Origin: Escherichia phage Ec_Makalu_002
Direction: 5' to 3' (one strand)
DNA: 64,000 nt
Sequence record: MN709127.1
Below the pieces are notes generated by a model. It did not search any database, had not been told where the DNA came from, and saw only the letters and a list, made by a program, of their open reading frames with translations. Positions 811 through 39,779 of the stretch are shown one piece after another (position 1 is the first letter of the stretch; each line of letters opens with the position of its first letter). Position numbers and translations under genes: made by a program.

Positions 811-841
811 CAAAAACAAAAAAGCCACCCCGAAGGATGGC
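811..841 (-). terminator. rho-independent terminator after hoc
   Basis: Hairpin GCCATCCTTCGGGGTGGC on minus strand followed by T-run. Confidence 0.55.
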
Positions 842-13398: not shown

Positions 13399-14219
13399 TT
13401 AGTCACCTCACCGAAAATTGTAAATTGTCTACGATTCTCATCGCCGAAAGATTCTACTACGTCGTTTACCTTGATGCAAGTCCCGCGCGGTAAAATTACT
13501 TCACATTCGCAAGGATTCCATGCAATAGACCCAACAACAAAACCTTTATGATCTTTTACGTCAATTACCCATGATACATTACAAGAATGTTGCATCTTTC
13601 CGGTCATTGATTCATATCGATTCTCACAATAAAGGCTAGTGCTGTTTGAAAGCCATCCTCCAAAGATGATCGGTGTCATGCTGGTCGATACAAAGTTTTT
13701 AAAGGTAAATTCCTTATCTTCAATAATACGCTCTATTGTCTGAATGTCAAGATGTTGACCGCGATAAAGAGTACCGTTTAACTTTTCGGTTTTATCCATG
13801 ACACAATCCATCAAATCGACAATCTCTGATATCTCATCGGTCATGTCTTCTTCCCCTAAGAGAGCACCATTTACCCATTCGTATTGTTCAGACACATAAT
13901 CGCAGATTGCATTATATTCTGCTGGGGTTATGTTGTTATGTTTGTAATGTTTGAATACATTATCTCCAAAATCTTCGGAATGTACTTCATACATCACATT
14001 AATGATTTTCTTGACAAATCCATAATCTTGCGTTTCTTGCTCAAGGAAACGGATAACTTTCACGTAATCATCAAAGTTAATATGATCGCTGATCATTTCA
14101 GTGATCATGTAACCATTAATCCCCTCAATGCCATATGTTTCGATGTAATTATCCATACGTTCCATCATTGATTCGCGTGATTCTTCGGAAAGGCGAAAAT
14201 CCTGTAATTTCTTGAACAT
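13395..14219 (-). CDS. ADP-ribosyltransferase, Alt-like paralog
   Basis: LYRG...FVSTS...ECEVILPRG (R-S-ExE motifs) parallel the ART region of adjacent Alt. Confidence 0.7.
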   Translation of the reverse strand: MFKKLQDFRLSEESRESMMERMDNYIETYGIEGINGYMITEMISDHINFDDYVKVIRFLEQETQDYGFVKKIINVMYEVHSEDFGDNVFKHYKHNNITPAEYNAICDYVSEQYEWVNGALLGEEDMTDEISEIVDLMDCVMDKTEKLNGTLYRGQHLDIQTIERIIEDKEFTFKNFVSTSMTPIIFGGWLSNSTSLYCENRYESMTGKMQHSCNVSWVIDVKDHKGFVVGSIAWNPCECEVILPRGTCIKVNDVVESFGDENRRQFTIFGEVTK

Positions 14220-14240
14220 TTTAAACCTCCCATATAACAG

Positions 14241-14271
14241 AAAACGGGGCTAGTATAAAACTAGTCCCCGT
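14241..14271 (-). terminator. terminator hairpin after alt
   Basis: ACGGGGACTAGTTTTATACTAGCCCCGT followed by TTTTCTGTT on minus strand. Confidence 0.45.
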
Positions 14272-14298
14272 TTGAGTCAACCATTATTTCTTAAAAAA

Positions 14299-16350
14299 TT
14301 ACATTTTAAATTTATCCGGCATAGCGTCTACAGACACAAGATCAGCGATAAGCTGACGTAGAGTTGCCTTATCTGCTTTCTTACGTTCGGTTTTAGCTTC
14401 GGTAATGAAGCTGGAGAAAGACAGGTCAGAAGCAGGTTTAACAACACCTTCACGGATGAATGCATCACCGTCCGCGATCATCTCACCAGATTCTTGTAAT
14501 GCTGCCAGTTCATTTTTGTTCATAATATGTGCCTCGATGTAATAAGTTTCTTGTGAATCCGTCGATGCCGTAGCACGAGTTACCGTATCAAAGGATAACA
14601 CAACACCGCGAGGAAGTAAAATCTCGCATTCTTTGTAAGCAAATGCTTTGTTACCTACTGGCAATACAGGGATGTTTTCCGCGCCAGCAATGGAGAAAGC
14701 AACATTAGCGCCACCTTCACCGCGAGATCCCGCCATAGAATCAACACCAGCAACGGCACTAGCCACGTTTGCATTCCAGCCACCAAAAATATTAGGTGCA
14801 AGGGAAGTGCTCACATAGTTTTTAAAGTAAAACGCTTTTTGCTTACGTGCAGTTTCCCACATTTGCGACCGGAAGTCCATACCACGATACAAGATAGTAC
14901 CTGGATCAAGTTTAACACCATAGTTAGCAAATGCGTTATCCAGTGCATCACACATCTTGACCAATTCTTCTGGGTCTGCGATGCCTTCAAACTCTTCCAG
15001 CTTACGGTCGGTTAGGAAGTTGTTCATATTGATGTATGCTGCATCCGCATATTCGCTCAACACAAAACCTTCCGCGCCAGGCAGATCAAGATCAATATCT
15101 GCCATCATTTCACCCATGTTGCTAGCAATTGCTTCAAACATACCGGAAGCAACATTACGCAGGGCATCGGTTTTAATCTGCGTGATGTGACTACGCAGCA
15201 TTTCAGCTTTTACATCTGCTGGCATAGACTGGTCGACGCGATCCATTGCCAGGGCGGTGATCTTGTTTTCGAATACTTCCTCGCTCATGATTTCTTTTAA
15301 GCGTTTGATTGATGCTGCGATGACTTCCGCAGACAACGGATCATATTGATCCTGAACTTTTACCAGTTCGCTTACTGCATATTTTGCATCGGCTTCGCTT
15401 TCAAAAATAGTACGCATGAAACCATAGCGAGTGATAATATCACTTGTCCAGTCATTCAGAGAACGGGCGGTTGAACGTTCTAAGGCTTGACGGTCAATCA
15501 GAGTATTAAACTGTTTCTTAGGTTCTGCTTCGGTGATATCTTCTTCCGGTTTAAGATTAATTTTTTCTGGATGATTCACATAGTCGCTGTTATAGGTCGC
15601 TTGAGTTTTCAGCATTTCTTCTTTAGTCAAACGAGATTTAGCCGCTACGCGTTGTTCTGCTTCCGCGTTTCGTTCTTCTTCCGACACAAGACTAGCCGCA
15701 TACGCCTCATCTTTAGTCAGAGATTCACCAGTAGCCTTAGATACCCAGCGATCACCTAAATCACTTTCTACTTTAGTGAACAGGGATTCATCGAGTTTAA
15801 TCCCTTTAATCTTATCAATCGCCATCCCGCGACGTTTGACAACAACTAAAGCGATCTTTTTGCTGGTCATTACTTCCTGCTGGAATACTTCAAACTTCGG
15901 TGTACGACGCACCAAACGCTCTATAACGCGCTTAACCAGTTCGGTCTTACCTTTCATGCGGGATACGTTAAAACGGAACATAACAGCGTCTAATTGCGCT
16001 TTACGGGCTGTTTCCATGACCACATCAAAAGCACTTGACATAACTGCAATCGGGTTATCTCCTAGACCATTTTTAAGCTGTACAATACGACCGCTTTTGT
16101 TCATTTCGCACAGTACAACATGTGCGGTCTTGTCACCCATACGAATGATTTTAGGTGTTTTGTTGGTGAAGTTACAAAGACGGACAATCACATCTTTATC
16201 GCGTGTCTGTACTGCAAAAAGCTGTTTAGGATTCTGCTTAGGCTTTAAGCACTGTACCGGAGCAATACTGCCAAAGTTTTCTTCCTCTTCCGTCAACAGC
16301 CATTTCTCGAAAGATTCAATCATTAGATCGTCGATTTCTAAGTTAAACAT
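14299..16350 (-). CDS. alt: Alt ADP-ribosyltransferase (head-packaged)
   Basis: 683 aa (T4 Alt about 682); ART motifs YRG/STS/ECEILLPRG; position after gene 54. Confidence 0.85.
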   Translation of the reverse strand: MFNLEIDDLMIESFEKWLLTEEEENFGSIAPVQCLKPKQNPKQLFAVQTRDKDVIVRLCNFTNKTPKIIRMGDKTAHVVLCEMNKSGRIVQLKNGLGDNPIAVMSSAFDVVMETARKAQLDAVMFRFNVSRMKGKTELVKRVIERLVRRTPKFEVFQQEVMTSKKIALVVVKRRGMAIDKIKGIKLDESLFTKVESDLGDRWVSKATGESLTKDEAYAASLVSEEERNAEAEQRVAAKSRLTKEEMLKTQATYNSDYVNHPEKINLKPEEDITEAEPKKQFNTLIDRQALERSTARSLNDWTSDIITRYGFMRTIFESEADAKYAVSELVKVQDQYDPLSAEVIAASIKRLKEIMSEEVFENKITALAMDRVDQSMPADVKAEMLRSHITQIKTDALRNVASGMFEAIASNMGEMMADIDLDLPGAEGFVLSEYADAAYINMNNFLTDRKLEEFEGIADPEELVKMCDALDNAFANYGVKLDPGTILYRGMDFRSQMWETARKQKAFYFKNYVSTSLAPNIFGGWNANVASAVAGVDSMAGSRGEGGANVAFSIAGAENIPVLPVGNKAFAYKECEILLPRGVVLSFDTVTRATASTDSQETYYIEAHIMNKNELAALQESGEMIADGDAFIREGVVKPASDLSFSSFITEAKTERKKADKATLRQLIADLVSVDAMPDKFKM

Positions 16351-16417: not shown

Positions 16418-16630
16418 TTATAATGCACCATCGAGCAATTGCTCTAAGGTGTATCCTGAATAGTCTTTTTCAATCAGGATATATTTTCCTACTCGTTTAA
16501 TACAACCGCGCATTTCAACGTATTCTGCGTAGTTGATGGTGCGAGTTGTTCCATCTTCTAGTAAAGCAGTACCGATTTCGTTAATGCGGTCATAAGTTAC
16601 GTCGGTAATGATGATTTCGATGTTAGCCAT
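16418..16630 (-). CDS. hypothetical small protein (70 aa)
   Basis: ORF track; ATG with RBS; own upstream promoter. Confidence 0.5.
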   Translation of the reverse strand: MANIEIIITDVTYDRINEIGTALLEDGTTRTINYAEYVEMRGCIKRVGKYILIEKDYSGYTLEQLLDGAL

Positions 16631-16666
16631 TTGATACTCCTTAGTAGTTCGTTTCGGTATGGGTGT

Positions 16667-16695
16667 ATTATGATATACACCCTCTGTTATGTCAA
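16667..16695 (-). promoter_or_regulatory. sigma70-like early promoter (TTGACA-17-CATAAT)
   Basis: -35/-10 hexamers at 17-nt spacing on minus strand, upstream of conserved leader and RBS. Confidence 0.45.
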
Positions 16696-16701
16696 CAACT
16701 T

Positions 16702-16881
16702 TTAGAACATTTTTGAAATTAATTCTGCTTTGATTTCGCAGAGAACATCTAAAGATTTCTCGTCACCCGCTTTTGCTGCTTCTGCTTGCATTTTTGAAAT
16801 GGCTTCAATGTCAGTGCAATTATAAGCCGCTTGAACTTTAGCGATTGCGATGATTGCCGATTCGATGGTTAAGTGTTTCAT
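16702..16881 (-). CDS. hypothetical small protein (59 aa)
   Basis: Hand-translated (MKHLTIESAIIAIAKVQAAYNCTDIEA...); RBS AGGAGA; own promoter. Confidence 0.45.
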   Translation of the reverse strand: MKHLTIESAIIAIAKVQAAYNCTDIEAISKMQAEAAKAGDEKSLDVLCEIKAELISKMF

Positions 16882-16913
16882 GTTTGATTCTCCTTTCGTT
16901 TCGGTATGTGTGC

Positions 16914-16942
16914 AGTATAGGGGATCGCCGATCCCCTGTCAA
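16914..16942 (-). promoter_or_regulatory. sigma70-like early promoter with palindromic spacer (TTGACA-GGGGATCGGCGATCCCC-TATACT)
   Basis: Consensus -35, 17-nt GC-rich palindromic spacer with two GATC, -10 TATACT. Confidence 0.5.
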
Positions 16943-16949
16943 CAACTTT

Positions 16950-17504
16950 TTAGTTATTTTTTAATTGCTCATCTTGCAATAATGCAATCACATGCTGGCG
17001 ATGTTCTTCCGATTGAGGAACACCGAAAAAGTTTGTTTTGTAGAAATACTCTAATCGGTCTTCTCGTGTGCTCTCTTCCATCATGATCGCGGGTAGTCCA
17101 AGATTTCGGAAACGTCGCTTTTCTGCTGGCGTAAAATCACTGTAATACAACATAGAATCATCATTACCAGCAATGCTAAACTCATCCTTCATAAAGGAGA
17201 ATATTGCGTTTAAACGCTGTTTACCGTCCACGATTTCGATCTCATAGCGAGAGCCATCATCAATCTTAGCCATTGCGATAGCACCAACCGGAAAATCATT
17301 AATCAGGTTTTCGATAAACATACGTTTGTTTTCGGTGTCCCATACCAAAGGACGCTGATAATCTGGGTTCATGTTGATATAGCCATCTTCTAACCACGCC
17401 TCATAAACAGAGATGACAAAGTTTTTAGTATTGGTATAGTAACGGCGTTTAGGCGTTAAACGGTTCATGTTATAGTCTCCTGAATGGATCATCACGTAAA
17501 TCAA
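16950..17504 (-). CDS. DUF262 / ParB-like nuclease-domain protein (GmrS N-terminal-like), short form
   Basis: PDYQRPLVWD and DGKQRLNAI motifs; track start is TTG, ATG at about 17468 with AGGAG RBS more likely (172 aa). Confidence 0.65.
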   Translation of the reverse strand: MIYVMIHSGDYNMNRLTPKRRYYTNTKNFVISVYEAWLEDGYINMNPDYQRPLVWDTENKRMFIENLINDFPVGAIAMAKIDDGSRYEIEIVDGKQRLNAIFSFMKDEFSIAGNDDSMLYYSDFTPAEKRRFRNLGLPAIMMEESTREDRLEYFYKTNFFGVPQSEEHRQHVIALLQDEQLKNN

Positions 17505-17802
17505 TATCTTTTAAGAACTCATCCCATGAATGGCGGATAATGTTCTTAATTCTCCAGATAAGCGCAGGGATTGAACGCTCTCCCATCTGGAAGTAAGGAT
17601 CATATGATCCATATGCCCAATATGCTACTACAATTCCACAATCGGCGCAATAATATTCTATTTCACTTGCTGGCGACCAAAGTCCATCAATATGATCACG
17701 GATCTTGCTTTCGATGTTATGGCTATGGCAATCAGGGCAACGGATGCAATGACCTTGTTTATCGTAATTTGACGTTAGCGAATACTTAAACAATCTCATC
17801 AT
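17470..17802 (-). CDS. zinc-ribbon protein (two CxxC pairs)
   Basis: CIRCPDC ... CADCG; ATGA-coupled to upstream gene. Confidence 0.5.
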   Translation of the reverse strand: MMRLFKYSLTSNYDKQGHCIRCPDCHSHNIESKIRDHIDGLWSPASEIEYYCADCGIVVAYWAYGSYDPYFQMGERSIPALIWRIKNIIRHSWDEFLKDIDLRDDPFRRL

Positions 17803-18515
17803 AGATCCTTATTGGCTTCAAATACTGCCTTTGCGAATCCTCGCGGGGTAAGTGACCTGATAGTCTTTGTTCTGGTTCCTTTCCCGCCTAGCTTAGAATG
17901 CTGTTTACTGTACCCTTTATTAATCTGCAACGGTTTCTTTTCTGGCATTATAAAGCCTTGTCCGGTCCATAAGCAAGTCTTTTTCGGGTACATATCACGG
18001 GCGGCAATATACTCAGGAAACGTAGGATGCTTATCATCTTCCGGCAAATAACCGCCATATTCCCACGGATGGAACATGTAATCAGGCTTACGCCACATGC
18101 TAGAGATAACGCTTACAGGATTCTCTATCATGTAGGGAACTCCTAGCCATTCACCCAAATAAGCGGTTATTTTAGCTGCCCTTACATCATGAACTTGAAT
18201 TAATGGTCCTTGTTCTCGTTTCTTTCGTTCAAAGTGCGCAGCGCCACTAACAGCTAAATTGGTGCATGGTGGGAATGCAAAGATAATATCCGGTTTCCCC
18301 CATTCAAGGTCCATTGCTCTTTCCAGCCAATTTAAATCAATCCATGTGTTTACATATGTAATGTTTGGATGTTCAAATCGGGTATTATATTTTTTGTATG
18401 TACCGTGGTCGCCATCGTCAGCATTAAAGCAGATCACCTTATGACCTGCTTTAGCCCATTCTAACCCCATTATCCCCGATCCGTCAAAGTTGCAGAATAT
18501 TAATTTTTGTTTCAT
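17799..18515 (-). CDS. C5-cytosine-methyltransferase-like protein (SAM-dependent MTase fold, no obvious target-recognition domain)
   Basis: Motif I-like FDGSGIMG, motif IV-like FPPC with catalytic Cys, motif VI-like IENP; 238 aa. Confidence 0.5.
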   Translation of the reverse strand: MKQKLIFCNFDGSGIMGLEWAKAGHKVICFNADDGDHGTYKKYNTRFEHPNITYVNTWIDLNWLERAMDLEWGKPDIIFAFPPCTNLAVSGAAHFERKKREQGPLIQVHDVRAAKITAYLGEWLGVPYMIENPVSVISSMWRKPDYMFHPWEYGGYLPEDDKHPTFPEYIAARDMYPKKTCLWTGQGFIMPEKKPLQINKGYSKQHSKLGGKGTRTKTIRSLTPRGFAKAVFEANKDL

Positions 18516-18757
18516 ATACGCCCCTTTAACCCAACACAGATTTTAGAAGGTTCTTTGCCGTGCCACATTAAGTAAATTCCGTTAATGCGTCCTTGTTTTG
18601 TATATGATTCTTTTCTGATCTTCTTATAGTGTCGTGCTTCCTCAGCCGATTGTTTAGAATGTCGATCATAAAGGAAGAGGAACAAAGGCCAACCATTAGC
18701 GGCCTTAATGCAGTTATTCAAAAATTCCTTATTTCGTTTAATTAATTTTCTTTTCAC
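18512..18757 (-). CDS. hypothetical basic protein (81 aa)
   Basis: ORF track; apparent GTG start overlapping upstream stop. Confidence 0.4.
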   Translation of the reverse strand: MKRKLIKRNKEFLNNCIKAANGWPLFLFLYDRHSKQSAEEARHYKKIRKESYTKQGRINGIYLMWHGKEPSKICVGLKGRI

Positions 18758-19005
18758 GCTGCCCCCATTGGTTTGATAGTAACAGAATCTAAAAGACCTT
18801 TGTTAGCCAGTTCGCGGCAAGTTTTCAGATCCGCAACTTCCCAGCCAGCCGCAATAAGGTTATCAATGAGGCTGTTAGCAACTTCTTCGCTCATGAAAGA
18901 GCACTGTTTGCCGATGGTGTAGCGTACACGCTGTAATTTCAGTTTACGGAAGCCTTTAACGTTCAGGTCTTTAGCGATTTTCTTTGCGGTTTCGATGTTA
19001 GCCAT
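18754..19005 (-). CDS. hypothetical protein (83 aa), first gene of the 5-gene operon
   Basis: ATG with RBS and promoter just upstream. Confidence 0.5.
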   Translation of the reverse strand: MANIETAKKIAKDLNVKGFRKLKLQRVRYTIGKQCSFMSEEVANSLIDNLIAAGWEVADLKTCRELANKGLLDSVTIKPMGAA

Positions 19006-19045
19006 TGTTTGATTCTCCTAAGTGGTATCTCGTCTTGATGGTTGT

Positions 19046-19074
19046 ATTGTAGGGGAGTTATCCTCCCCTGTCAA
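19046..19074 (-). promoter_or_regulatory. sigma70-like early promoter for the 19005-16950 operon (TTGACA-GGGGAGGATAACTCCCC-TACAAT)
   Basis: -35/-10 at 17-nt spacing; palindromic spacer; conserved leader. Confidence 0.5.
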
Positions 19075-19088
19075 CACTTTTTATAAAA

Positions 19089-19256
19089 TTATTTGTTAAT
19101 TTCTGGTGCGTTGCTAGGATAGTAACCTTCTTTAACTCCGAGGTATTTCGCAACCATCCCTACAATCTTCTGTGCTACTACAATGTCAAATTTCAGATAA
19201 TCTTCGCCGTGGGTTTCAATGATATATGCTTCACATGCTGCTTTAGTCTCGAACAT
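19089..19256 (-). CDS. hypothetical small protein (55 aa), paralog A of the 22372-22539 gene
   Basis: Hand-translated MFETKAACEAYIIETHGEDYLKFDIVVAQKIVGMVAKYLGVKEGYYPSNAPEINK. Confidence 0.5.
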   Translation of the reverse strand: MFETKAACEAYIIETHGEDYLKFDIVVAQKIVGMVAKYLGVKEGYYPSNAPEINK

Positions 19257-19289
19257 TTTGATTCTCCTATTTCGTTTCGGTATGTGTGT

Positions 19290-19318
19290 ATTATAGGGGA
19301 TCTCCCGATCCCCGTCAA
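19290..19318 (-). promoter_or_regulatory. sigma70-like early promoter (TTGACG-17-TATAAT)
   Basis: Palindromic GC spacer GGGATCGGGAGATCCCC. Confidence 0.5.
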
Positions 19319-19332
19319 CAACTTTTTTAAAA

Positions 19333-19614
19333 TTATTCGTGATTAGTTTCGATATTGTGCATTTTGCACCAGTTCAGCCAATCGCCAAGATCTTGATAGT
19401 TGATGCTTTTATCTGCTGCCATCGTTTTTGTCTTGATACCCATATGTGCGTTATGAGTAAGCATTTTTACAGTGAACTCAATTTTATCGCCTTTAGCTTT
19501 AACATCAACCAGTTTGGTCCACTGGCTACCAGCACCGCGAATGTTCATACCAACGATGTTTCCGATGTATGCTTCTTTGTTGTTCAGGATTTCGGTTGCT
19601 TTGATGAATTTCAT
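19333..19614 (-). CDS. hypothetical protein (93 aa)
   Basis: ORF track; ATG, RBS, own promoter. Confidence 0.5.
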   Translation of the reverse strand: MKFIKATEILNNKEAYIGNIVGMNIRGAGSQWTKLVDVKAKGDKIEFTVKMLTHNAHMGIKTKTMAADKSINYQDLGDWLNWCKMHNIETNHE

Positions 19615-19647
19615 TTTTGATTCTCCAGTTCGTTTCGGTATGGGTGT

Positions 19648-19676
19648 ATTATGCTATGTTCTTACTTTGGTGTCAA
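19648..19676 (-). promoter_or_regulatory. sigma70-like early promoter (TTGACA-17-CATAAT)
   Basis: Hexamers at 17-nt spacing upstream of conserved leader. Confidence 0.4.
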
Positions 19677-19684
19677 CAACTTTT

Positions 19685-19954
19685 TTAGATATTTTCAGAA
19701 ATAAATTTTAAAACTTGACGTAAATGTTTCTCATCTTTGATAGTCGCCGGAAGTTCTTCTTTTACTTCCTGTGCAAGATAGATATTTCCGTTCCAAGTGA
19801 AAGACCCGTCTTCGTTTACGCGATAGCTGAACATCCATTCGCAATCATTTTCGATTTCATATACACACAGAAGGGTGTAATCTTCAAAGCTATTGATTTC
19901 AAGGTCGAAGCCGTGGCGTTTTGCAAAGTTGGTAGTGGTTTTAGTCAGTGCCAT
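19685..19954 (-). CDS. hypothetical protein (89 aa)
   Basis: ORF track; ATG and RBS. Confidence 0.5.
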   Translation of the reverse strand: MALTKTTTNFAKRHGFDLEINSFEDYTLLCVYEIENDCEWMFSYRVNEDGSFTWNGNIYLAQEVKEELPATIKDEKHLRQVLKFISENI

Positions 19955-19994
19955 TGTTTGATTCTCCTAAGTGGTATCTCGTTTCGATGGGTGT

Positions 19995-20023
19995 ATTATG
20001 CTATAGGCGTGATCAGGTGTCAA
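19995..20023 (-). promoter_or_regulatory. sigma70-like early promoter (TTGACA-17-CATAAT)
   Basis: Hexamers at 17-nt spacing. Confidence 0.4.
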
Positions 20024-20047
20024 TGCCTTTTTTAAAATTTTATGCAA

Positions 20048-20072
20048 TAAAAAAGCCGACACTAAGGTCGGC
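20048..20072 (-). terminator. rho-independent terminator
   Basis: GCCGACCTTAGTGTCGGC followed by TTTTTTATT on minus strand. Confidence 0.55.
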
Positions 20073-20080
20073 TAATAAAA

Positions 20081-20536
20081 TCATTTAGACAAATAATCAT
20101 TCAGTGCAATCCGGTCGGCATGTTCCGGCGTTACATCAATCGCAATCACTTTAACGCGTGCTTTCTTGCGACCTGGGTTTTCTCGTAACCAGTGCTCATG
20201 ACCGTGAACATTTTTATACTGCGATGCTTCTTCGAAGGTACGGATCGGACCAGGGTAATCAGCGTAAAGGATCTCTAGGTCATCGGTGATGTAAAAATAT
20301 ACGTTGTAATTACTGTTCTCTAGCTTAAGCAGAGACTTTCGGAACATTGGGAGATTTTCGCGGGTAAATTCAAAAGTAATATCTTTCATAGTATTATCCT
20401 CAATAGTTGGATGAAAAGGGGGCTTAACGCCCCATATATTAAAACAGTCCTTCCTGTACACCGTAGTAGAGTTCGTCGCTGATAATTTCATTAATGCGAC
20501 GGTGTGCATATTCCTGATTTGCGAAGTTGTCAGCAA
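20081..20536 (-). CDS. His-motif family small protein, member 1
   Basis: YFYITDDL ... HGHEHW ... VIAIDV; ATG at about 20389 with GAGGA RBS more likely (102 aa). Confidence 0.5.
   Translation of the reverse strand: MLTTSQIRNMHTVALMKLSATNSTTVYRKDCFNIWGVKPPFHPTIEDNTMKDITFEFTRENLPMFRKSLLKLENSNYNVYFYITDDLEILYADYPGPIRTFEEASQYKNVHGHEHWLRENPGRKKARVKVIAIDVTPEHADRIALNDYLSK
20414..20433 (-). terminator. terminator-like hairpin
   Basis: GGGGCGTTAAGCCCC followed by CTTTTC on minus strand. Confidence 0.4.
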
Positions 20537-20726
20537 GTTCTACTTTAGTTTCACCGTCATGAGTCCATTTAGTGATAACTTTACCATCTGCAAATTTGAA
20601 GTTGAACTCTTTAGCTACTGCATCGCGTACCAGACGTGCGAACTTGTTGTTACGGATTGCATTATCGGTTTCGTGTGCAGCGTGAGCAAATTTGTTAACT
20701 TTCAGAGTGATAGTGATGTATGCCAT
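20439..20726 (-). CDS. hypothetical protein (95 aa)
   Basis: ORF track; ATG, RBS, own promoter. Confidence 0.5.
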   Translation of the reverse strand: MAYITITLKVNKFAHAAHETDNAIRNNKFARLVRDAVAKEFNFKFADGKVITKWTHDGETKVELADNFANQEYAHRRINEIISDELYYGVQEGLF

Positions 20727-20772
20727 AATTTGATTCTCCTAGTTAGAAAGTGTATCTCGTTTCGATGGGTGT

Positions 20773-20801
20773 ATTATGCTATACACCCGATCTTATGTCA
20801 A
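20773..20801 (-). promoter_or_regulatory. sigma70-like early promoter (TTGACA-17-CATAAT)
   Basis: Hexamers at 17-nt spacing; palindrome GGGTGTAT..ATACACCC. Confidence 0.4.
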
Positions 20802-20809
20802 CACTTTTT

Positions 20810-21103
20810 TTATAAAATAATTTTTTGATATTTTTCTATGATGTTTGTGTAATCCACATCAACCGCTATCACCGTTGCTTCGAATCCACCGTTTAGCCAA
20901 TGGCTATGGTCATGATCGTGAAAGAAACCAAGACCAGTACGAAGACCTTCTTTATATTCGGCGCGTACATTTAGATCATCATCGATAAACAGATAAAACC
21001 ATGAATTTTTACTAGGATTGATGATACAACCTTTCAGATTAGGGAGAATATCACGACTAAGAATAAACTTATCACCTACTTTGAACATAATATTAGTCCT
21101 CAC
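20810..21103 (-). CDS. His-motif family small protein, member 2
   Basis: FYLFIDDDL ... HDHDHSHW ... VIAVDV; ATG at about 21088 more likely. Confidence 0.5.
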   Translation of the reverse strand: MRTNIMFKVGDKFILSRDILPNLKGCIINPSKNSWFYLFIDDDLNVRAEYKEGLRTGLGFFHDHDHSHWLNGGFEATVIAVDVDYTNIIEKYQKIIL

Positions 21104-21494
21104 TTATAAGGTCAAACCAATTGTTTTTCGCATAATGCTTAATGCGTGCTTGATCTGCTTCCGCTGGTGATAGATTCCATGCAACCACTACAACTTCTGA
21201 CGCGTCGTCATCCGTTTCTGATACCCAATGATTGTGATTCATACAGTTATTTGCGATCGAGTGAGCAAATGATTTCATCACTGGAGACGTATAATCATAG
21301 TAACGGATTTTCAGATTTTCATCAACATACAAGTAGATCGTATAAGGTTTATATTCAGTAACCAGTAACAGACAGTTACGCAATTCTGGGAAAATCTTTT
21401 TAGTTAATTTCATTTTATAATCCTCGGTCGCGGCTATAGTACACGGTACGCCATACAATTTCATGTTTCGTGTCGCTCCAGCACACGATCTCAT
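21093..21494 (-). CDS. His-motif family small protein, member 3
   Basis: IYLYVDENL ... NHNHW ... VVVVAW; ATG at about 21413 more likely (106 aa). Confidence 0.5.
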   Translation of the reverse strand: MRSCAGATRNMKLYGVPCTIAATEDYKMKLTKKIFPELRNCLLLVTEYKPYTIYLYVDENLKIRYYDYTSPVMKSFAHSIANNCMNHNHWVSETDDDASEVVVVAWNLSPAEADQARIKHYAKNNWFDLISED

Positions 21495-21654
21495 TTACTC
21501 TTAAATCTTTGTTATCAACAAAAGATGAACATTGTGACGCTTCTTTCATCATTTTATCTGCTGTTTTCTCATCAAATACAGCACAGATTTCTTTATACAC
21601 TCGATAATCTTTGAATTGACTCTGGATACCCATAATTAACACCATTCCAACCAA
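21415..21654 (-). CDS. hypothetical small protein, tandem paralog of 21593-21850
   Basis: Shared motif FKDY.VYKEI...F(D/A)EK.A(D/E)KMM(K/E)(E/D)AS.C.SF; likely start about 21633. Confidence 0.45.
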   Translation of the reverse strand: MVGMVLIMGIQSQFKDYRVYKEICAVFDEKTADKMMKEASQCSSFVDNKDLRVNEIVCWSDTKHEIVWRTVYYSRDRGL

Positions 21655-21850
21655 TTGTTTTTGAGAAAACGTTTATCCACTGTTGAGTGTAGCATGTTTC
21701 TTTCCATGATACAATACGAGTAGAATAATGGTTTTTGTTTCCAGAAAAGGACGGGCATTTTGATGCATCTTCCATCATCTTTTCGGCGAACTCCGCGTCA
21801 TATACCCGCAGGATCTGTTGATATGCTTTATAATCTTTAAATTTGCTCAT
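21593..21850 (-). CDS. hypothetical small protein, tandem paralog of 21415-21654
   Basis: ORF track; see paralog. Confidence 0.45.
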   Translation of the reverse strand: MSKFKDYKAYQQILRVYDAEFAEKMMEDASKCPSFSGNKNHYSTRIVSWKETCYTQQWINVFSKTIGWNGVNYGYPESIQRLSSV

Positions 21851-22115
21851 AATTGTTAACTACCTTATCAGCTTCTTTTATTGTTTTTACATCAACTGCG
21901 ATAATCCGTAAAGGTTCGTCGAAGGTCCACCAGTGGTCATGAATATCAGCTTGTGATTTATCACCAAAGGAATCACGAATATCATTTTTACATTTATAGC
22001 TAATATGGCCTTCATAGTCAACATAAAGGTAATTATCGAAAATCGGCGTTTTTAAGATCATACCGAAAAATCTTTCTTTGTGTGTCTTATCAAGTGTTGC
22101 AGTAATTCGCATCAT
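21837..22115 (-). CDS. His-motif family small protein, member 4
   Basis: YLYVDYEG ... HDHWW ... IIAVDV; ATG with GAGGA RBS. Confidence 0.55.
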   Translation of the reverse strand: MMRITATLDKTHKERFFGMILKTPIFDNYLYVDYEGHISYKCKNDIRDSFGDKSQADIHDHWWTFDEPLRIIAVDVKTIKEADKVVNNYEQI

Positions 22116-22127
22116 AATATATTCCTC

Positions 22128-22307
22128 TTAGAAAGGGATGGTCATTTCTTGAGCTTGTACATTCTCGTTAGGATTAAACTTCATCCAACCGATATTGTCT
22201 ACCAGCATATGTACATTTTTATCATATCCTACGTGAGTAGTCAACACTAAATGTGCTTTACCTTCAACGATGATTTCCATGTACTTCTGAACTTCGATAG
22301 CTTTCAT
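22128..22307 (-). CDS. hypothetical small protein (59 aa)
   Basis: Hand-translated (MKAIEVQKYMEIIVEGKAHLVL...); RBS GGAGAA; own promoter. Confidence 0.4.
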   Translation of the reverse strand: MKAIEVQKYMEIIVEGKAHLVLTTHVGYDKNVHMLVDNIGWMKFNPNENVQAQEMTIPF

Positions 22308-22339
22308 TTTGATTCTCCGTTTGTTGTCTTGATGGGAGT

Positions 22340-22368
22340 ATCTTACTACTCCCTTTAATCATTGTCAA
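22340..22368 (-). promoter_or_regulatory. sigma70-like early promoter (TTGACA-17-TAAGAT)
   Basis: Hexamers at 17-nt spacing; palindrome GGGAGTA..TACTCCC around -10. Confidence 0.4.
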
Positions 22369-22371
22369 CTA

Positions 22372-22695
22372 TTATTTGTTAATTTCCGGTGCGTTGCTCG
22401 GATAGTAACCTTCTTTAACACCCAGATATTTTGCAACCATTCCGGTGATCTTCTGTGCTACTACGATATCGAATTTCAGGTAGTCTTCACCGTGGTTTGC
22501 TACAATGTATGCTTCGCATTCTGCTTTAGTCTGGAACATTTTTGATTCTCCTATATCTCGTTGGTATGTGTGCATTATAGGGGATCGGTGATCCCCTGTC
22601 AACAACTTTTTATGATTTTTCTTTATATGCGTATTGAATAAATTGGTCCGCCACTTCGTCGGCTTTTTCGGGTTTGACTTCTGACGCCAGGACAA
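22372..22695 (-). CDS. hypothetical small protein, paralog B of the 19089-19256 gene
   Basis: Upstream part of track ORF is read-through of the leader (MHTY..GES); real gene probably 22372-22539 (55 aa, 49/55 identical to paralog A). Confidence 0.5.
   Translation of the reverse strand: MSWRQKSNPKKPTKWRTNLFNTHIKKNHKKLLTGDHRSPIMHTYQRDIGESKMFQTKAECEAYIVANHGEDYLKFDIVVAQKITGMVAKYLGVKEGYYPSNAPEINK
22574..22602 (-). promoter_or_regulatory. sigma70-like early promoter (TTGACA-GGGGATCACCGATCCCC-TATAAT)
   Basis: Consensus hexamers, 17-nt palindromic spacer. Confidence 0.5.
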
Positions 22696-22906
22696 TAGCT
22701 AGATCGGTTTCGTCGTTCCCGTCATACCAATGATTATGAGTGTCTTTTTCTTTGATATAGAATGAGTCATTTGGAGTTGGACGACAATATACGTCTAAAT
22801 TCTCGTCGATGTAAAAGATCCAATCTTCATAAAGAATAACCGTATTAGCAAGGTTCTTATTACCTTCAACGAAAGGTTCGGTTACAAACAAATCAGTACG
22901 TTCCAT
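22610..22906 (-). CDS. His-motif family small protein, member 5
   Basis: WIFYIDENL ... THNHW ... AIVLASEV. Confidence 0.55.
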   Translation of the reverse strand: MERTDLFVTEPFVEGNKNLANTVILYEDWIFYIDENLDVYCRPTPNDSFYIKEKDTHNHWYDGNDETDLAIVLASEVKPEKADEVADQFIQYAYKEKS

Positions 22907-22921
22907 AGTATTTTCCTCAAA

Positions 22922-23083
22922 TTAAGAAAAAGCGTTGAAAACAACCGCCAACACAACTACGTTAGCGATAAGGCTTAAAAAGCATTTCTTGAAACTTTCA
23001 GTGCAGATACCAATACTGGCAGGAATTACACCGATCACGATAGCATAAAGAATAACTGCGATTTCTTGAAATACACCGTTCAT
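22922..23083 (-). CDS. hypothetical small hydrophobic protein (53 aa)
   Basis: Hand-translated (MNGVFQEIAVILYAIVIGVIPASIG...); predicted membrane peptide. Confidence 0.35.
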   Translation of the reverse strand: MNGVFQEIAVILYAIVIGVIPASIGICTESFKKCFLSLIANVVVLAVVFNAFS

Positions 23084-23140
23084 AATATTATCCTCAAAGT
23101 ATGGGAGAGTGTTACCCCTCCCGATGATTGTTATATTGCA

Positions 23141-23473
23141 TCACACAAAATGGCGTGTCAATGCTTCTTTTGCGGTTCCGCTAAGATTCTCGATCTCTCC
23201 TGGCATAACATCAACCGCCAGAACTTCTACAACATCCTCTGTTCCTAACCAGTGAGTATGACCTTTGTAGAACTTGATGCCCATATTGCCTTCTTCGTCC
23301 CATTTAACGCCCCATTTAACGTTATCACTAGCCCACCACACATCACCGTCGATAAAGTTGATGTAAAGCACACTACGCCACATTGAATTAGTTACTTTCA
23401 ATACCGCGCCTTTCATCTCTTCCACGGTGTGGTCTTCCATTTTGAAGACCTCGCCTACCTGAACTTTTGCCAT
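23141..23473 (-). CDS. His-motif family small protein, member 6
   Basis: LYINFIDGD ... GHTHW ... VLAVDV. Confidence 0.55.
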   Translation of the reverse strand: MAKVQVGEVFKMEDHTVEEMKGAVLKVTNSMWRSVLYINFIDGDVWWASDNVKWGVKWDEEGNMGIKFYKGHTHWLGTEDVVEVLAVDVMPGEIENLSGTAKEALTRHFV

Positions 23474-23490
23474 TTAGTCACCTCTCTTTA

Positions 23491-23706
23491 TTACATAACA
23501 ATCACGCCAGCCGTTGAAAGTTGATGTTTCAACTGAGCATTTTCTGCTACTGTCAAATCAATGATTTCTTGTGACGCTGCAATCATATAGCCATTGGTGA
23601 TATTGTTTTGCATCAGTTCAATGGTTTCTTCGTTGTAGCGGATTTTAGCGATGATTTCGTTGAAGTTCATGTTTGATTCTCCTAGTTCGTTTCGGTATGT
23701 GTGCAT
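23491..23706 (-). CDS. hypothetical small protein
   Basis: Track ORF includes leader read-through; likely ATG at about 23670 (59 aa, MNFNEIIAKIRY...). Confidence 0.45.
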   Translation of the reverse strand: MHTYRNELGESNMNFNEIIAKIRYNEETIELMQNNITNGYMIAASQEIIDLTVAENAQLKHQLSTAGVIVM

Positions 23707-23734
23707 TATAGGGGATCTCCCGACCCCCTGTCAA
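23705..23734 (-). promoter_or_regulatory. sigma70-like early promoter (TTGACA-18-TATAAT)
   Basis: Palindromic GC spacer GGGGGTCGGGAGATCCCC. Confidence 0.45.
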
Positions 23735-23747
23735 CAACTTTTTTGAA

Positions 23748-24224
23748 TTATTTTTCTTGATGCTCGCGCTCGTACTTTTCGAAATAAAATTCTACTGGCT
23801 GATCGTGGATTGAAAGCAAGCCAAAGCGTTTAGCCGCACGTAATCCCATGTTACGTTGAATGTACTTCTGGAAGTTCTCGCGTATACACTTACGCCAGTA
23901 TTCTAAGCCCATACAGCTTTTGTAAAGATTGCATTGCACACAAGCCGGATTCATGTTGTCAAGTATATCGTGCTCCGGTTTATGCATTCCTACAACCTTA
24001 TACTTCCACGACCCATCATCATTACGGGCAATTCGTCCATTTTCATCATAGACTACTTTTGAGCGTCGCAATACTGGTTTGATGTGGTCTGCGTGCCAGC
24101 GATCCCCTAGTTCCTCGCCACAATAGGCACAACGTCCACCGTATTTCATTTTCAGGATCTGGCGTTGCTCTTTCTTTGACAATTTTTTAGGTTTAGGGGC
24201 TTTCGCCCCTTCATTATCACACAT
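23748..24224 (-). CDS. HNH endonuclease
   Basis: CAYCGEEL...WHADHIKP...N...CVQCN (HNH with Zn-ligand Cys pairs); 158 aa. Confidence 0.7.
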   Translation of the reverse strand: MCDNEGAKAPKPKKLSKKEQRQILKMKYGGRCAYCGEELGDRWHADHIKPVLRRSKVVYDENGRIARNDDGSWKYKVVGMHKPEHDILDNMNPACVQCNLYKSCMGLEYWRKCIRENFQKYIQRNMGLRAAKRFGLLSIHDQPVEFYFEKYEREHQEK

Positions 24225-31130: not shown

Positions 31131-31529
31131 TTAACTTTCCAGAATATCGCGAGCTTCGTTACGCTCCTTGATGATTTTCAGGACAAATTCCAGTTTTTCT
31201 TTGTTTAGTGTTCCGTTTTCCATTGCTTCTTTGACGGTAAACACTCCGCCACCTTGCCCGTATACAGTGACAGTGATTTCACCTAACATCGTGGTATGAA
31301 AACCTCCAATTTTCGGTGATTCGAAAGAAACAATTACCTCGCGGACAGTATTACCGTCGTTGATTTCTGAGAGGGTAATGTCGTTTTTGTAGGCGGTTGC
31401 TTTAACCATACGGATCAACATAGTCTGATCTGGGGAGATGGTCATTTTGTCCATTGCATGTTGCAATGCAGCGTAACCGAAAACTTTAACGAAGTCCAGA
31501 ACGTCTTTGCGAGTTTGAAATTTAATCAT
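31131..31529 (-). CDS. hypothetical protein (132 aa)
   Basis: ORF track; ATG, own promoter. Confidence 0.5.
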   Translation of the reverse strand: MIKFQTRKDVLDFVKVFGYAALQHAMDKMTISPDQTMLIRMVKATAYKNDITLSEINDGNTVREVIVSFESPKIGGFHTTMLGEITVTVYGQGGGVFTVKEAMENGTLNKEKLEFVLKIIKERNEARDILES

Positions 31530-31562
31530 CTTGATACTCCTTAGTTGTTTTGGGATGGGAGT

Positions 31563-31591
31563 ATCTTACTACTCCCGTGATATGCTGTCAA
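31563..31591 (-). promoter_or_regulatory. sigma70-like early promoter (TTGACA-17-TAAGAT)
   Basis: Hexamers at 17-nt spacing. Confidence 0.4.
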
Positions 31592-31599
31592 CTGCTTTT

Positions 31600-31749
31600 T
31601 TATGCAACCGCAAACATCAACATTTGAACATTCTTGGCTGTCTGGCTTTCAAAGTTCTGACATTCTTTGATAATGTCCTCTACTTTCTCGCCGGAGATCT
31701 CCGCGTAAGTTTCGATTGCCATTTTCAGTACCGCGTCAAAGTTGTTCAT
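31600..31749 (-). CDS. hypothetical small protein (49 aa)
   Basis: Hand-translated (MNNFDAVLKMAIETYAEISGEKVEDII...); RBS GGAGAA. Confidence 0.35.
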   Translation of the reverse strand: MNNFDAVLKMAIETYAEISGEKVEDIIKECQNFESQTAKNVQMLMFAVA

Positions 31750-31787
31750 TTGATTCTCCTTAAAGTGTATTTCGTTTCGATGGGGGT

Positions 31788-31816
31788 ATATTAATACCCC
31801 CGTTTCATGCTGTCAA
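31788..31816 (-). promoter_or_regulatory. sigma70-like early promoter (TTGACA-17-TAATAT)
   Basis: Hexamers at 17-nt spacing. Confidence 0.35.
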
Positions 31817-32035
31817 CTACTTTTTAATGACAAGTTCGAATTTTGCTACCTTGCGTCCTCGTTTATTGAAAGCAACCCACGGACGGTTTTCAATGTAGAA
31901 CAATTCTTCGCCAATAATGAATACTGGCTGATTGTAAAGGCGACCCATCAGGTCACGCTGGCGAATGGTATTAGATTCGTATACTTCGCCTACTACAAAG
32001 TGCTTGCTGATAGAGTCGGTGCAAGTAAATTTCAT
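31817..32035 (-). CDS. hypothetical small protein (72 aa)
   Basis: ORF track; ATG, RBS. Confidence 0.45.
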   Translation of the reverse strand: MKFTCTDSISKHFVVGEVYESNTIRQRDLMGRLYNQPVFIIGEELFYIENRPWVAFNKRGRKVAKFELVIKK

Positions 32036-32068
32036 TTTGATTCTCCTTTGTTTCGTTTCGATGGGAGT

Positions 32069-32097
32069 ATCTTACAACTCCCAATATTCAGTGTCAA
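32069..32097 (-). promoter_or_regulatory. sigma70-like early promoter (TTGACA-17-TAAGAT)
   Basis: Hexamers at 17-nt spacing. Confidence 0.4.
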
Positions 32098-32104
32098 CTG
32101 CTTT

Positions 32105-32323
32105 TTACTTGTTGTATTCATTCCACCAACGAGTAAGTTTATCGATTATTTTTGTGTTTCTATCCAATTTCTCCCACCGTTTACGCGGGTTTATAAGCCG
32201 GAATAGGTAGGGTGTACTTGTTAAGTGAACTCGGTCAAAATAATGGTTGATAAGCTGGCATTCAATTCTCAATTTCATCTTTTTACGATGAAAATATGCA
32301 ATTACTTGTTCTTCTGTTTCCAT
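32105..32323 (-). CDS. hypothetical small protein (72 aa)
   Basis: ORF track; ATG, RBS. Confidence 0.45.
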   Translation of the reverse strand: METEEQVIAYFHRKKMKLRIECQLINHYFDRVHLTSTPYLFRLINPRKRWEKLDRNTKIIDKLTRWWNEYNK

Positions 32324-32347
32324 ATGTTCCTCCGTTTCGATGCGTGC

Positions 32348-32376
32348 ATTATGCTATGGCAAGATCCGATTGTCAA
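32348..32376 (-). promoter_or_regulatory. sigma70-like early promoter (TTGACA-17-CATAAT)
   Basis: Hexamers at 17-nt spacing. Confidence 0.4.
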
Positions 32377-32382
32377 CACCCA

Positions 32383-32412
32383 ATAACAAAAAAGTCGCCA
32401 CTATGGGCGACT
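32383..32412 (-). terminator. rho-independent terminator
   Basis: AGTCGCCCATAGTGGCGACT followed by TTTTTGTTATT on minus strand. Confidence 0.5.
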
Positions 32413-32423
32413 TAGGTTAAACA

Positions 32424-34413: not shown

Positions 34414-34643
34414 TATCCGACAACCTCAAAACATTTATCATCAGGAAGAATAGCCCATTCTACGCCGTATTCATCCTTAACGTAGTAGCAAGTCCCATCA
34501 TGTCGAGCATCATATTCATCACCGACAACAAAGCTATCAGCTAGCTCAAAATCTACAGCAACACATTTTAATTTTGCCATAATAAAATCCTCATTTGTTT
34601 TTGATGGTTGCATTATAGCGGGGATTTCTCCCCGCGTCAACAC
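34413..34643 (-). CDS. hypothetical small protein
   Basis: Track ORF starts upstream of the promoter; likely ATG about 34580 (MAKLKCVAVDF..., 55 aa). Confidence 0.45.
   Translation of the reverse strand: MLTRGEIPAIMQPSKTNEDFIMAKLKCVAVDFELADSFVVGDEYDARHDGTCYYVKDEYGVEWAILPDDKCFEVVG
34612..34640 (-). promoter_or_regulatory. sigma70-like early promoter (TTGACG-CGGGGAGAAATCCCCGC-TATAAT)
   Basis: Consensus -10, 17-nt palindromic spacer. Confidence 0.5.
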
Positions 34644-34648
34644 TTATT

Positions 34649-39724: not shown

Positions 39725-39779
39725 AATATAATCCTCTCTTTGTTTCGATGTTTGTATTATACATCATCTGTATTCGGTG

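Follow-up and report, generated by a model that had tools for sequence, protein, structure and literature searches.

A minus-strand cassette array between alt and gp30

The 64,000-nucleotide stretch analyzed here (the window) comes from Escherichia phage Ec_Makalu_002 (sequence record MN709127.1) and contains a repeated, ~90 nt regulatory cassette on its minus strand. By sequence similarity it is the genome of a Krischvirus, an RB49-like T4-type myovirus: 63 phage records match the interval 16500-24000 at 94-99% identity, and almost all are Krischvirus phages of Escherichia or Shigella. A query spanning 13500-26500 placed this interval between alt, which encodes an RNA polymerase ADP-ribosyltransferase, and the gp30 DNA ligase gene. 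Segments shared with relatives are ~96% identical, and coverage nevertheless ranges from 45% to 99% among 64 relatives, so the alt-gp30 interval behaves as a hyperplastic region. According to the annotation of GEC-3S, Phi1 and RB49, it is orthologous to open reading frames (ORFs) 185-212 of RB49/phi1, and the orthologous sites in GEC-3S are already annotated as promoters with -35 and -10 signals. We consider it very probable that the cassettes are the promoter-early stem-loops (PeSLs) of the RB49/phi1 lineage, seen here at their type locus.

A scripted scan followed by inspection of the leftover sites identified 24 minus-strand cassettes in the window (Table 1), with 10 in 16667-23734, 4 in 31563-32376, 1 at 34612-34640 and 6 in 57928-59756. 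About 20 had been listed in a reading made from the sequence only, and their coordinates agree to the base (-10 ends, -35 starts); the cassettes at 14280, 39783 and 40167 are additional to that list, and two more at 807 and 236 are probable. Each fills the gap from the stop codon of a small accessory gene to the ATG of the following gene, and consists of an A-rich tract, (G)TTGACA, 16-18 nt, a TATAAT/CATAAT-like -10, an A/C-rich leader, GGAGAATCAAA and ATG. MAFFT alignment of 23 cassettes, a comparison the sequence-only reading had proposed, yielded the consensus AAAAAGTTGTTGACA-N17-TATAAT-ACACCCATC..GA.AA...GGAGAATCAAA..ATG, in which the invariant positions are TTGAC, A and T in the -10 and G in the Shine-Dalgarno sequence. 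The upstream AT-rich tract is seen in AAAAAGTTGTTGACA, and the stop codon of the upstream gene lies 6-25 nt from the -35. Apart from the larger products of p14280 and p57956 (Table 1), the downstream ORFs encode 49-132 amino acids (aa) and have no Pfam family, placing the cassettes directly upstream of ORFans. Searched against Rfam at gathering thresholds, the whole window gave zero matches.

Promoter elements of the cassettes

The string TTGACA-N16-18-TATAAT occurs nine times where 0.09 occurrences are expected. All of the nine best sigma-70 matches in 16300-24400 (11-12/12 positions) are minus-strand cassettes, and weaker matches in that interval are no more frequent than in shuffles. TTGAC(A/G/T) followed by 16-18 nt and a -10 with at least 4/6 matches is found in 23/24 cassettes. 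The -35 is TTGAC throughout the 23-cassette alignment and not the GTTTAC of T4, as the sequence-only reading had observed and as was already published. RB49 early promoters were described with a preferred G at -33, T or C at -12 and a C-rich stretch from -3 to -1 (Nolan 2006, PMC1524935), a consensus with which the mapped 5' ends of early transcripts from RB49 agree (Desplats 2002, as presented in PMC1524935). In vivo, PeSL206/205 of RB49 drove lacZ expression to ~13,000 Miller units, and other PeSL reporter clones were obtained only with promoter-down mutations (PMC2839356). The proposal of host-type early promoters is supported by the activity of this ortholog of p22602 and by the agreement of the RB49 consensus with the mapped 5' ends. 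By analogy with the orthologs, for which activity is shown, each cassette in the window would be a sigma-70-type early promoter. T4 early promoters similarly combine an A-rich UP-like tract with a TATAAT -10 and are read by the host sigma-70 polymerase right after infection. They differ in the -35, which is (G)TTGACA with G at -33 in the cassettes and GTTTAC (-36 to -31) in T4. Position -12 of the cassettes is T or C, and RB49, unlike T4, is without a MotA-type middle mode (PMC1524935).

Stem-loops change in sequence and keep their pairing

A stable stem-loop is present in 20/24 cassettes, located in the spacer in 7, across the -10 in 10 and in the form of an upstream canonical terminator in 3. 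Examples of the second kind are GGGTGTAT-agcata-ATACACCC and GGGAGTA-gtaaga-TACTCCC. Several of the spacers had been described as perfect GC-rich palindromes, and the four quoted ones were found verbatim in p16942, p22602, p19318 and p34640. The inverted repeats are real, with 7-8 bp and loops of 3-5 nt; they are not strict palindromes, and only the 7/24 lie inside the spacer. Folding energies support the structures: 14/23 cassette cores rank in the lowest decile when 55-nt folding energies are taken across the window (p = 3e-9), and shuffle z-scores range from -2.1 to -5.0 for ten tested stems, compared with ~+0.6 for two stemless cassettes.

At junctions preceding the same downstream gene, the coding flanks are 95-99% identical between genomes and the cassette core is replaced wholesale, with pairing always kept; six core versions exist upstream of the p23734 gene among the genomes compared. 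The p20801 (ORF198) junction carries GGGTGTAT/ATACACCC here and GGGGATAT/ATATCCCC in RB49, GEC-3S and Phi1, amounting to two compensatory pair swaps, and a further compensatory change distinguishes GGGAGTA/TACTCCC from GGGGGTA/TACCCCC; these changes are read from the stem alleles per orthologous junction, which sit in different registers. In the main stems, 4-5 variants have an imperfect G.U pair on the sense strand and one has A.C, and spacer stems with 4-nt loops (GGGA, GAAA) show the GNRA pattern when read on the sense strand. Both features, though from small samples, favor an RNA-level hairpin in read-through transcripts. A comparison of sense and antisense folding energies of the cores as an indicator of the functional strand was dropped, since the antisense of the A/C-rich leader is G/U-rich and gives spurious G.U pairs. 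In Makalu_003 (L009), a chimeric cassette at ~27112 joins a 5' arm GGGAGTA of the p31591 type to a 3' arm TACCCCC of the p31816 type; its A.C stem mismatch is expected from crossover or gene conversion inside the loop between neighboring cassettes.

The PeSL211/210 stem-loop lowered lacZ read-through to the same degree as rrnB T1 (PMC2839356). Like the four quoted inverted repeats, this tested stem (GGGGAT-cacgt-ATCCCC, then TATACT) belongs to the spacer type. The only U/A-rich tail available to a spacer stem is the -10 hexamer (UAUAAU). Only p20023, p32376, p59756 and p807 have a hairpin followed by a T-run, in each case the separate upstream one; p14280 fits this roughly.

Cassettes at recombination breakpoints

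Comparison of the window with itself returned 40 repeat pairs, and 40/40 involve cassettes. These pairs are 36-130 nt long, 70-94% identical and end near the start codon and the AT-tract. A longer repeat extends over an entire cassette+ORF module, with 19088-19327 (p19318 and a 55-aa ORF) matching 22371-22611 (p22602 and a 55-aa ORF) at 84% over 242 nt.

The region was then compared with 11 relatives, and six events are bounded by cassettes. FL04 carries a 3.3-kb deletion between the paralogous modules 19088-19327 and 22371-22611. ORF186 is lost in JK32 and PHB13 via p16942 x p16695, and ORF191 in JK32 via p19318 x p19074. In RB49, ORF192 is inserted at the AT-rich edge of p19318 (19326-19337), where JSE has another ORF inserted. 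RB49 and JK32 contain ORF195/196 between two copies of the stretch 19976-20072, which is represented here by the single p20023. Finally, ORF210+211 are present at the AT-rich edge of p23734 (23761/23764) in RB49, FL37, JSE and PHB13. Crossover positions are at the AT-rich edge, in the -10 region and in the leader, and not in the stems. In a first-pass count, 7/17 breakpoint clusters lie inside cassettes, which make up 12% of the region (p = 0.004, approximate, as the count used first-pass BLAST-hit chaining; the events themselves were taken from the full lists of high-scoring segment pairs). Recombination from one PeSL to another has been proposed for the ORF192 and ORF210 loci, where mini-circles were also detected (PMC2839356). 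The suggestion that the elements are recombination points for gene shuffling is thus published and was reproduced when cassette boundaries were set against the 11 relatives.

Where a junction has no promoter cassette, genes start from a second stereotyped translation-initiation region, TTGAGGAtAATAtTATG, as at the minus-strand starts 23083, 22906, 22115, 21088 and 20389; it also stands at 34580, 57893 and 39724. In 11/11 relatives an unrelated allele replaces the 53-aa membrane-like ORF 23083-22922. This swap is bounded exactly by two TTGAGGAtAATAtTATG sites (breakpoints 22921, 23081), so crossovers may also use the short homology of ribosome-binding sites.

The leader as a putative RegB/S1 site

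The string GGAGAATCAA has 14 exact occurrences in the window, all on the minus strand and all in cassette leaders; with at most one mismatch, 20 matches are found against 5.75 expected. The 3' end of the leader, GGAGAAUCAAA (conserved GGAGAATCAAA), agrees at 10/11 positions with the cleavage consensus of T4 RegB/S1, GG*AGRAYARAA (PMC3014915). Likewise, all 14 occurrences of GGAGRAYNRAA in the window lie in cassette leaders (for example 23682-23672, 22551-22541 and 16893-16883, minus strand). As in T4 RegB/S1 targets, the motif is in the translation initiation region of early genes. The leader differs at position 8, which is C and not the A of the T4 consensus, and the RB49 RegB protein is itself divergent; RB49 has a divergent but functional regB (PMC3014915). 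On the strength of this motif, the leader is a putative RegB/S1 site, and the cassette may also programme the inactivation of early mRNA. RegB is not discussed in the PeSL paper (PMC2839356).

Look-alikes outside T4-type phages

A blastn query with the cassette matched 58 Krischvirus records at 6-10 places each, and an exact-pattern scan of IMG/VR located the cassette on just two Krischvirus-sized contigs. The blastn search also returned two weak outliers, Pseudomonas phage PE09 (Otagovirus) and the 366-kb Erwinia jumbo phage Hallingskeid. The PE09 look-alike reads taaAATAGTTGTTGACAccGGGGGC-gaaa-GCCCCCATACT...CATCGAAACGAACTAGAGGAAACAACATG and that of Hallingskeid TTGACA-GGGAGTAT...TATAATACTCCC-ATACCAAACGAGAT. 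In both, an A-tract and GTTGACA come first, the hairpin occupies the spacer or spans the -10, and the A/C-rich leader is partly identical to that of Krischvirus (CATCGAAACGAAC). At least 16 intergenic cassettes were found in PE09, and 6/16 carry hairpins that belong to the lowest folding-energy decile of PE09 (p = 0.003). An Otagovirus insertion/deletion also involves cassettes: a PE09 ORF (L021 42432-42896) missing from phiPsa374 is flanked by two of them. In the literature, PeSLs are mentioned for T4-type phages only. These findings suggest a lead and not a result.

Neighboring genes and stem remnants

Six tandem paralogous ORFs (23473-23141, 22906-22610, 22115-21837, 21413-21093, 21088-20810 and 20389-20081) occupy 20081-23473 on the minus strand. 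Their products of 92-110 aa are 17-26% identical and share an invariant H-x-H-W, followed by a V-I-A-V-D-V-like strand. Two of the six match phrog_9345 (unknown function), and three tested members are without a Pfam family. We regard these H-x-H-W paralogs as a locally amplified accessory gene family.

The hyperplastic region also contains a three-gene block (16950-18515, minus strand) encoding a 238-aa DNA methyltransferase, a 110-aa zinc-ribbon protein and a 172-aa protein with only the GmrSD N-terminal (DUF262) domain. The methyltransferase matches phrog_757 ('DNA methyltransferase') only, with no Pfam, NCBIfam or PDB sequence match; its FPPC and ENP motifs suggest a C5-cytosine enzyme. The block may be an anti-restriction or self-protection module.

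Two stem remnants lie on the minus strand. At ~37255-37205, GCGGGGA-gga-ATCCCCGC stands directly before GGAGTATCAAATG with no recognisable promoter. At 23125-23100, GGGAGGG-gtaaca-CTCTCCC follows a weak TTGACA-17-CAATAT inside the end of the upstream ORF. Both are probably decayed cassettes or a class with the stem downstream of the -10.

Table 1 Cassettes of the window and look-alike elements in other phages (z, shuffle z-score of the stem; GATC counts refer to the stem)
Element	Span	Strand	-35, spacing, -10	Stem or terminator	ATG	Downstream ORF and remarks
p807 (probable)	720..840	-	TTGACA-16-TATAAT	terminator CCATCC-ttcg-GGGTGG + TTTTTT		leader GCACGCATCGA
p14280	14217..14305	-	TTGACT 14280-14275; TATACT 14257-14252	across -10, bulged, CGGGGaCTAG/CTAGCCCCG, then TTTTC	14219	274 aa, ADP-ribosyltransferase-like; cassette kept in 11/11 relatives
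p16695	16628..16720	-	TTGACA 16695-16690; CATAAT 16672-16667	16682-16661, across -10, GGGTGTAT/ATACACCC; z = -3.7	16630	70 aa
p16942	16879..16967	-	TTGACA; TATACT 16919-16914	16937-16919, spacer, GGGGATC-ggc-GATCCCC, 2 GATC; z = -2.6	16881	59 aa
p19074	19003..19099	-	-10 TACAAT	19069-19051, spacer, GGGGAG-gataa-CTCCCC, no GATC; z = -3.6	19005	83 aa
p19318	19254..19343	-	-35 TTGACG	19313-19296, spacer, GGGGATC-ggga-GATCCCC, GNRA loop, 2 GATC	19256	55 aa
p19676	19612..19701	-	TTGACA-17-CATAAT	stemless (5' arm decayed), 0 kcal/mol	19614	93 aa
p20023	19952..20073	-	TTGACA-17-CATAAT	promoter without stem; upstream canonical terminator 20073-20054, AGCCGAC-cttagt-GTCGGCT + TTTTTT	19954	89 aa
p20801	20724..20826	-	-10 CATAAT	20788-20767, across -10, GGGTGTAT/ATACACCC; z = -5.0	20726	95 aa
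p22368	22305..22393	-	-10 TAAGAT	22353-22334, across -10, GGGAGTA/TACTCCC; z = -4.1	22307	59 aa
p22602	22537..22627	-	TTGACA-17-TATAAT	22597-22579, spacer, GGGGATC-acc-GATCCCC, 2 GATC; z = -4.1	22539	55 aa; ortholog of RB49/phi1 PeSL206/205
p23734	23668..23759	-	TTGACA-18-TATAAT	23729-23710, spacer, GGGGGTC-ggga-GATCCCC, one G.U pair, 1 GATC	23670	59 aa
p31591	31527..31616	-	-10 TAAGAT	across -10, GGGAGTA/TACTCCC	31529	132 aa
p31816	31747..31841	-	-10 TAATAT	across -10, GGGGGTAT/ATACCCCC; z = -3.9	31749	49 aa
p32097	32033..32122	-	-10 TAAGAT	across -10, TGGGAGT/ACTCCCA	32035	72 aa
p32376	32321..32413	-	TTGACA-17-CATAAT	upstream canonical terminator 32413-32392, AAGTCGCC/GGCGACTT + TTTTT	32323	72 aa
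p34640	34578..34665	-	TTGACG-17-TATAAT	34635-34618, spacer, GCGGGGA-gaaa-TCCCCGC, GNRA loop, no GATC; z = -4.3	34580	55 aa
p39783	39722..39808	-	TTGACA-16-TATAAT	stemless	39724	109 aa; leader ACATCGAAAC
p40167	40107..40192	-	TTGACA-16-TATAAT	no stem of at least 6 bp	40109	109 aa; leader ACATCGAAAC
p57956	57891..57981	-	-10 TAAGAT	across -10, GGGAGTA/TACTCCC	57893	252 aa; type-2 ribosome-binding site
p58179	58117..58204	-	-10 TATACT	spacer, GGGGATC-ggt-GATCCCC, 2 GATC	58119	51 aa
p58463	58399..58488	-	degenerate -35 TTGATG; -10 TAACAT	across -10, GGGAGTAT/ATACTCCC	58401	70 aa
p58776	58711..58801	-	TTGACG-17-TATTAT	no clean stem	58713	80 aa
p59481	59419..59506	-	-10 TAAAAT	across -10, GGGAGTA/TACTCCC	59421	90 aa
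p59756	59692..59796	-	TTGACT-17-CATAAT	upstream canonical terminator 59796-59774, AAGCCGATC/GGTCGGCTT + TTTTTT	59694	68 aa
Look-alike, L019	400-477
Look-alike, L020	~420-505
PE09 49500-99455 (L021)	cassettes at 16619, 18967, 21630, 25904, 34827, 42370, 42901 and others

Discussion

PeSLs were defined in phi1 and RB49, with ~52 per genome, by Arbiol, Comeau, Kutateladze, Adamia and Krisch (2010, Genome Biol Evol 2:140; PMC2839356). Their published anatomy comprises an upstream stop codon in an AT-rich tract, sigma-70 -35 and -10 elements, a stem-loop, a Shine-Dalgarno sequence and a start codon. The stem is often polyG/polyC and takes one of five positions, most commonly between -35 and -10 or overlapping the -10. 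PeSLs are found mainly in hyperplastic regions ahead of ORFans, and in vivo promoter or terminator activity was reported for PeSL206/205, PeSL193/192 and the PeSL211/210 stem (PMC2839356). The window cassettes show the promoter, the AT-tract with stop codon, the stem-loop, the Shine-Dalgarno/ATG, the placement before ORFans and the position at insertion/deletion boundaries. They share with the RB49/phi1 elements the lineage (Krischvirus), the locus (alt-gp30, ORF185-212), the anatomy and the association with ORFans and insertions/deletions. The genome differs from RB49/phi1 in its own combination of cassette alleles and is without the ORF192, ORF195/196 and ORF210/211 modules. As PeSL cassettes have been known since 2010, nothing fundamental is added here.

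Related designs exist elsewhere. In T4/PST and KVP40/nt-1 (Comeau, Arbiol and Krisch 2014; PMC4122927) and at the T-even IP-locus, composite promoter/terminator motifs bound the variable genes of hyperplastic regions, and such PeSL-like elements are likewise proposed to mediate modular shuffling (PMC4122927). They have lineage-specific early promoters (GTTTAC in T4) and weaker, AT-richer stems, and are analogues, not sequence homologues. Lambdoid-phage morons and integron cassettes resemble PeSL modules as single accessory genes with their own expression signals, and integron cassettes move through a circular intermediate with recombination at a structured site. Unlike integrons, PeSL cassettes have neither an integrase nor an attC-type site, their mobility depending on homology between regulatory cassettes.

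We propose the following mechanism. Immediately after infection, unmodified host RNA polymerase would read the A-rich tract and the near-consensus sigma-70 promoter. In read-through RNA, the GC-rich hairpin would attenuate or terminate polymerases arriving from upstream, making each ORFan an insulated transcription unit; this step is established for one spacer-type stem (PeSL211/210) and presumed for the others, with spacer stems using the -10 UAUAAU as a weak U/A tail. The A/C-rich, structure-free leader ending in GGAGAAUCAAA would then support efficient translation initiation and, given its 10/11 match, probably double as a putative RegB/S1 site shutting off early messages. More than 20 copies with 70-90% identity over ~90 nt allow homologous recombination to cross over between cassettes, and phage recombination would thereby delete, duplicate, insert (through mini-circles) or swap cassette+ORF modules. 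The breakpoints described above and the literature speak for this last step, the mini-circles being known from the literature.

Several observations weigh against parts of this interpretation. Four of the 24 cassettes are stemless. In a minus-strand terminator scan, no promoter-embedded stem qualifies by a following T-run, and the region has separate canonical terminators (20073-20054, 20433-20419 and 16412-16396). Like intrinsic terminators, the cassettes place a GC-rich nascent-RNA hairpin directly downstream of a stop codon; unlike them, the embedded stems lack a T-run, and none passes the sense-strand consensus scan. Embedded stems of this kind next to separate canonical terminators point to attenuation rather than full termination, which is the likely outcome for many copies. 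A terminator or attenuator function across all stem classes is extrapolated from the single tested stem, and the G.U/A.C asymmetry and the GNRA loops come from small, non-independent samples. Five events are not bounded by cassettes (17465, 18514-18741, 20846-21631, 22921-23081 and 23472); about half of the breakpoints fall at ordinary gene junctions, and the excess is modest against a gene-junction-only null. We conclude that cassettes are favored, not exclusive, recombination sites. The proposed RegB link is built on a motif match. The sequence-only reading had taken palindromes acting purely as terminators of upstream genes to count against its proposal. A terminator/attenuator role of the stem is indeed published; it coexists with promoter function and does not replace it.

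The stems could instead be read at the level of DNA. A G-run/C-run character recurs across the stem alleles, and the stem is located where a repressor would occlude RNA polymerase. The GGGG...CCCC repeat might accordingly be the site of a phage or host protein, either a repressor at its operator or a recombinase or helper targeting recombination to the cassettes, as Arbiol et al. speculate with reference to GGGC/GCCC motifs at T4 deletion endpoints (PMC2839356). However, at least five arm sequences and many loops (ACC, GGT, GGC, GCC, ATC, ACA, GGGA, GAAA, GATAA and others) occur, the stem may lie in the spacer, across the -10 or upstream, crossovers map outside the stems, and no recombinase was identified in RB49/phi1 (PMC2839356). 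Moreover, the changes are compensatory and not sequence-preserving, which is the signature of a structure and not of a sequence-specific site. With sequence, loop and position varying and pairing kept, such a protein site, and with it the regulator site that the sequence-only reading had envisaged, is very unlikely. Perfect GC-rich arms might also extrude as DNA cruciforms, and cleavage of these by a structure-specific nuclease, for example endonuclease VII, would start recombination through the resulting breaks; in T4-type phages, breaks and recombination-dependent replication are coupled. For cruciform extrusion, though, 7-8 bp is a short stem, the sense strand is the only one with G.T pairs and its tetraloops are GNRA, both of which indicate an RNA-level structure, and the stemless cassettes p19676 and p20023 also lie at breakpoints; we hold this explanation to be highly improbable. 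It is scarcely credible that the cassettes are independent strong promoters, alike by convergence on the sigma-70 consensus and with no shared descent or shuffling role. Any highly expressed early gene would be expected to have sigma-70 elements and a good Shine-Dalgarno sequence in front of it, but identity reaches 90% over 90 nt and includes the spacer, discriminator, leader and AT-tract, which have no consensus role. Genes next to the cassettes are unrelated, junctions exchange cassette alleles, chimeric cassettes occur and breakpoints coincide with cassettes, so that convergence is already contradicted.

The only new element of the sequence-only reading was a role for Dam, suggested by spacer stems often carrying two Dam sites. 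Two GATC are found in 4/7 spacer stems, one in 1/7 and none in 2/7. Depending on whether phage DNA is unmethylated, hemimethylated or fully methylated, methylation could in principle tune early transcription from Dam-sensitive promoters or hairpins, or mark cassettes for MutH- or methylation-directed processing. Twelve GATC in 23 promoter cores compare with 4.4 expected, the site recurs at the same offset (~3 nt after the -35) in several cassettes of different stem classes, and Dam was never considered in the PeSL paper (PMC2839356). Yet 9/12 core GATC stem from five near-identical copies of a single stem allele, GGGGATC/GATCCCC; the tetramer is self-complementary, and an inverted repeat with it in one arm automatically has it in the other. 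At the p23734 junction, JSE, FL04, PHB13 and ELT4 have GGGGAG/CTCCCC, retaining the stem and losing GATC; further replacements at strictly orthologous junctions are GGGGGTC G.U variants and, in SFHK24, GATA and GAAC. Nearly all stems across the -10 are also without GATC, and the window as a whole shows no enrichment (342 observed versus 334 expected, second-order model). The evidence thus counts against a Dam role, which we judge very unlikely; GATC is merely part of the commonest stem allele. Among ORFs of at least 120 aa in the window, none has the [DNS]PP[YFW] motif of a Dam-like protein. The Dcm site CCWGG occurs 27 times in 64 kb, compared with roughly 60 by a crude hand estimate from base composition.

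The reading of the cassettes as PeSLs bears on how large virulent phages change their gene content. PeSLs are one of the few concrete proposals for accessory-gene gain and loss in these phages that spares the core modules: each cassette gives an ORFan its own promoter and insulator and is also a portable patch of homology. The window provides an independent confirmation with genomes sequenced after 2010. As a putative RegB/S1 target, the leader may link cassette-driven expression to early-mRNA shut-off. The design of A-tract, GTTGACA, hairpin and ...CATCGAAACGA... leader could be general beyond T4-type phages, whether convergent or horizontally spread, a possibility that we consider rather doubtful at present. 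If true, PeSL-type shuffling would contribute more widely to the turnover of accessory genes in virulent phages, and the leader that the cassettes have in common, with its RegB/S1-like GGAGAAUCAAA in Krischvirus, would be a functional element of the RNA and not simply a spacer.

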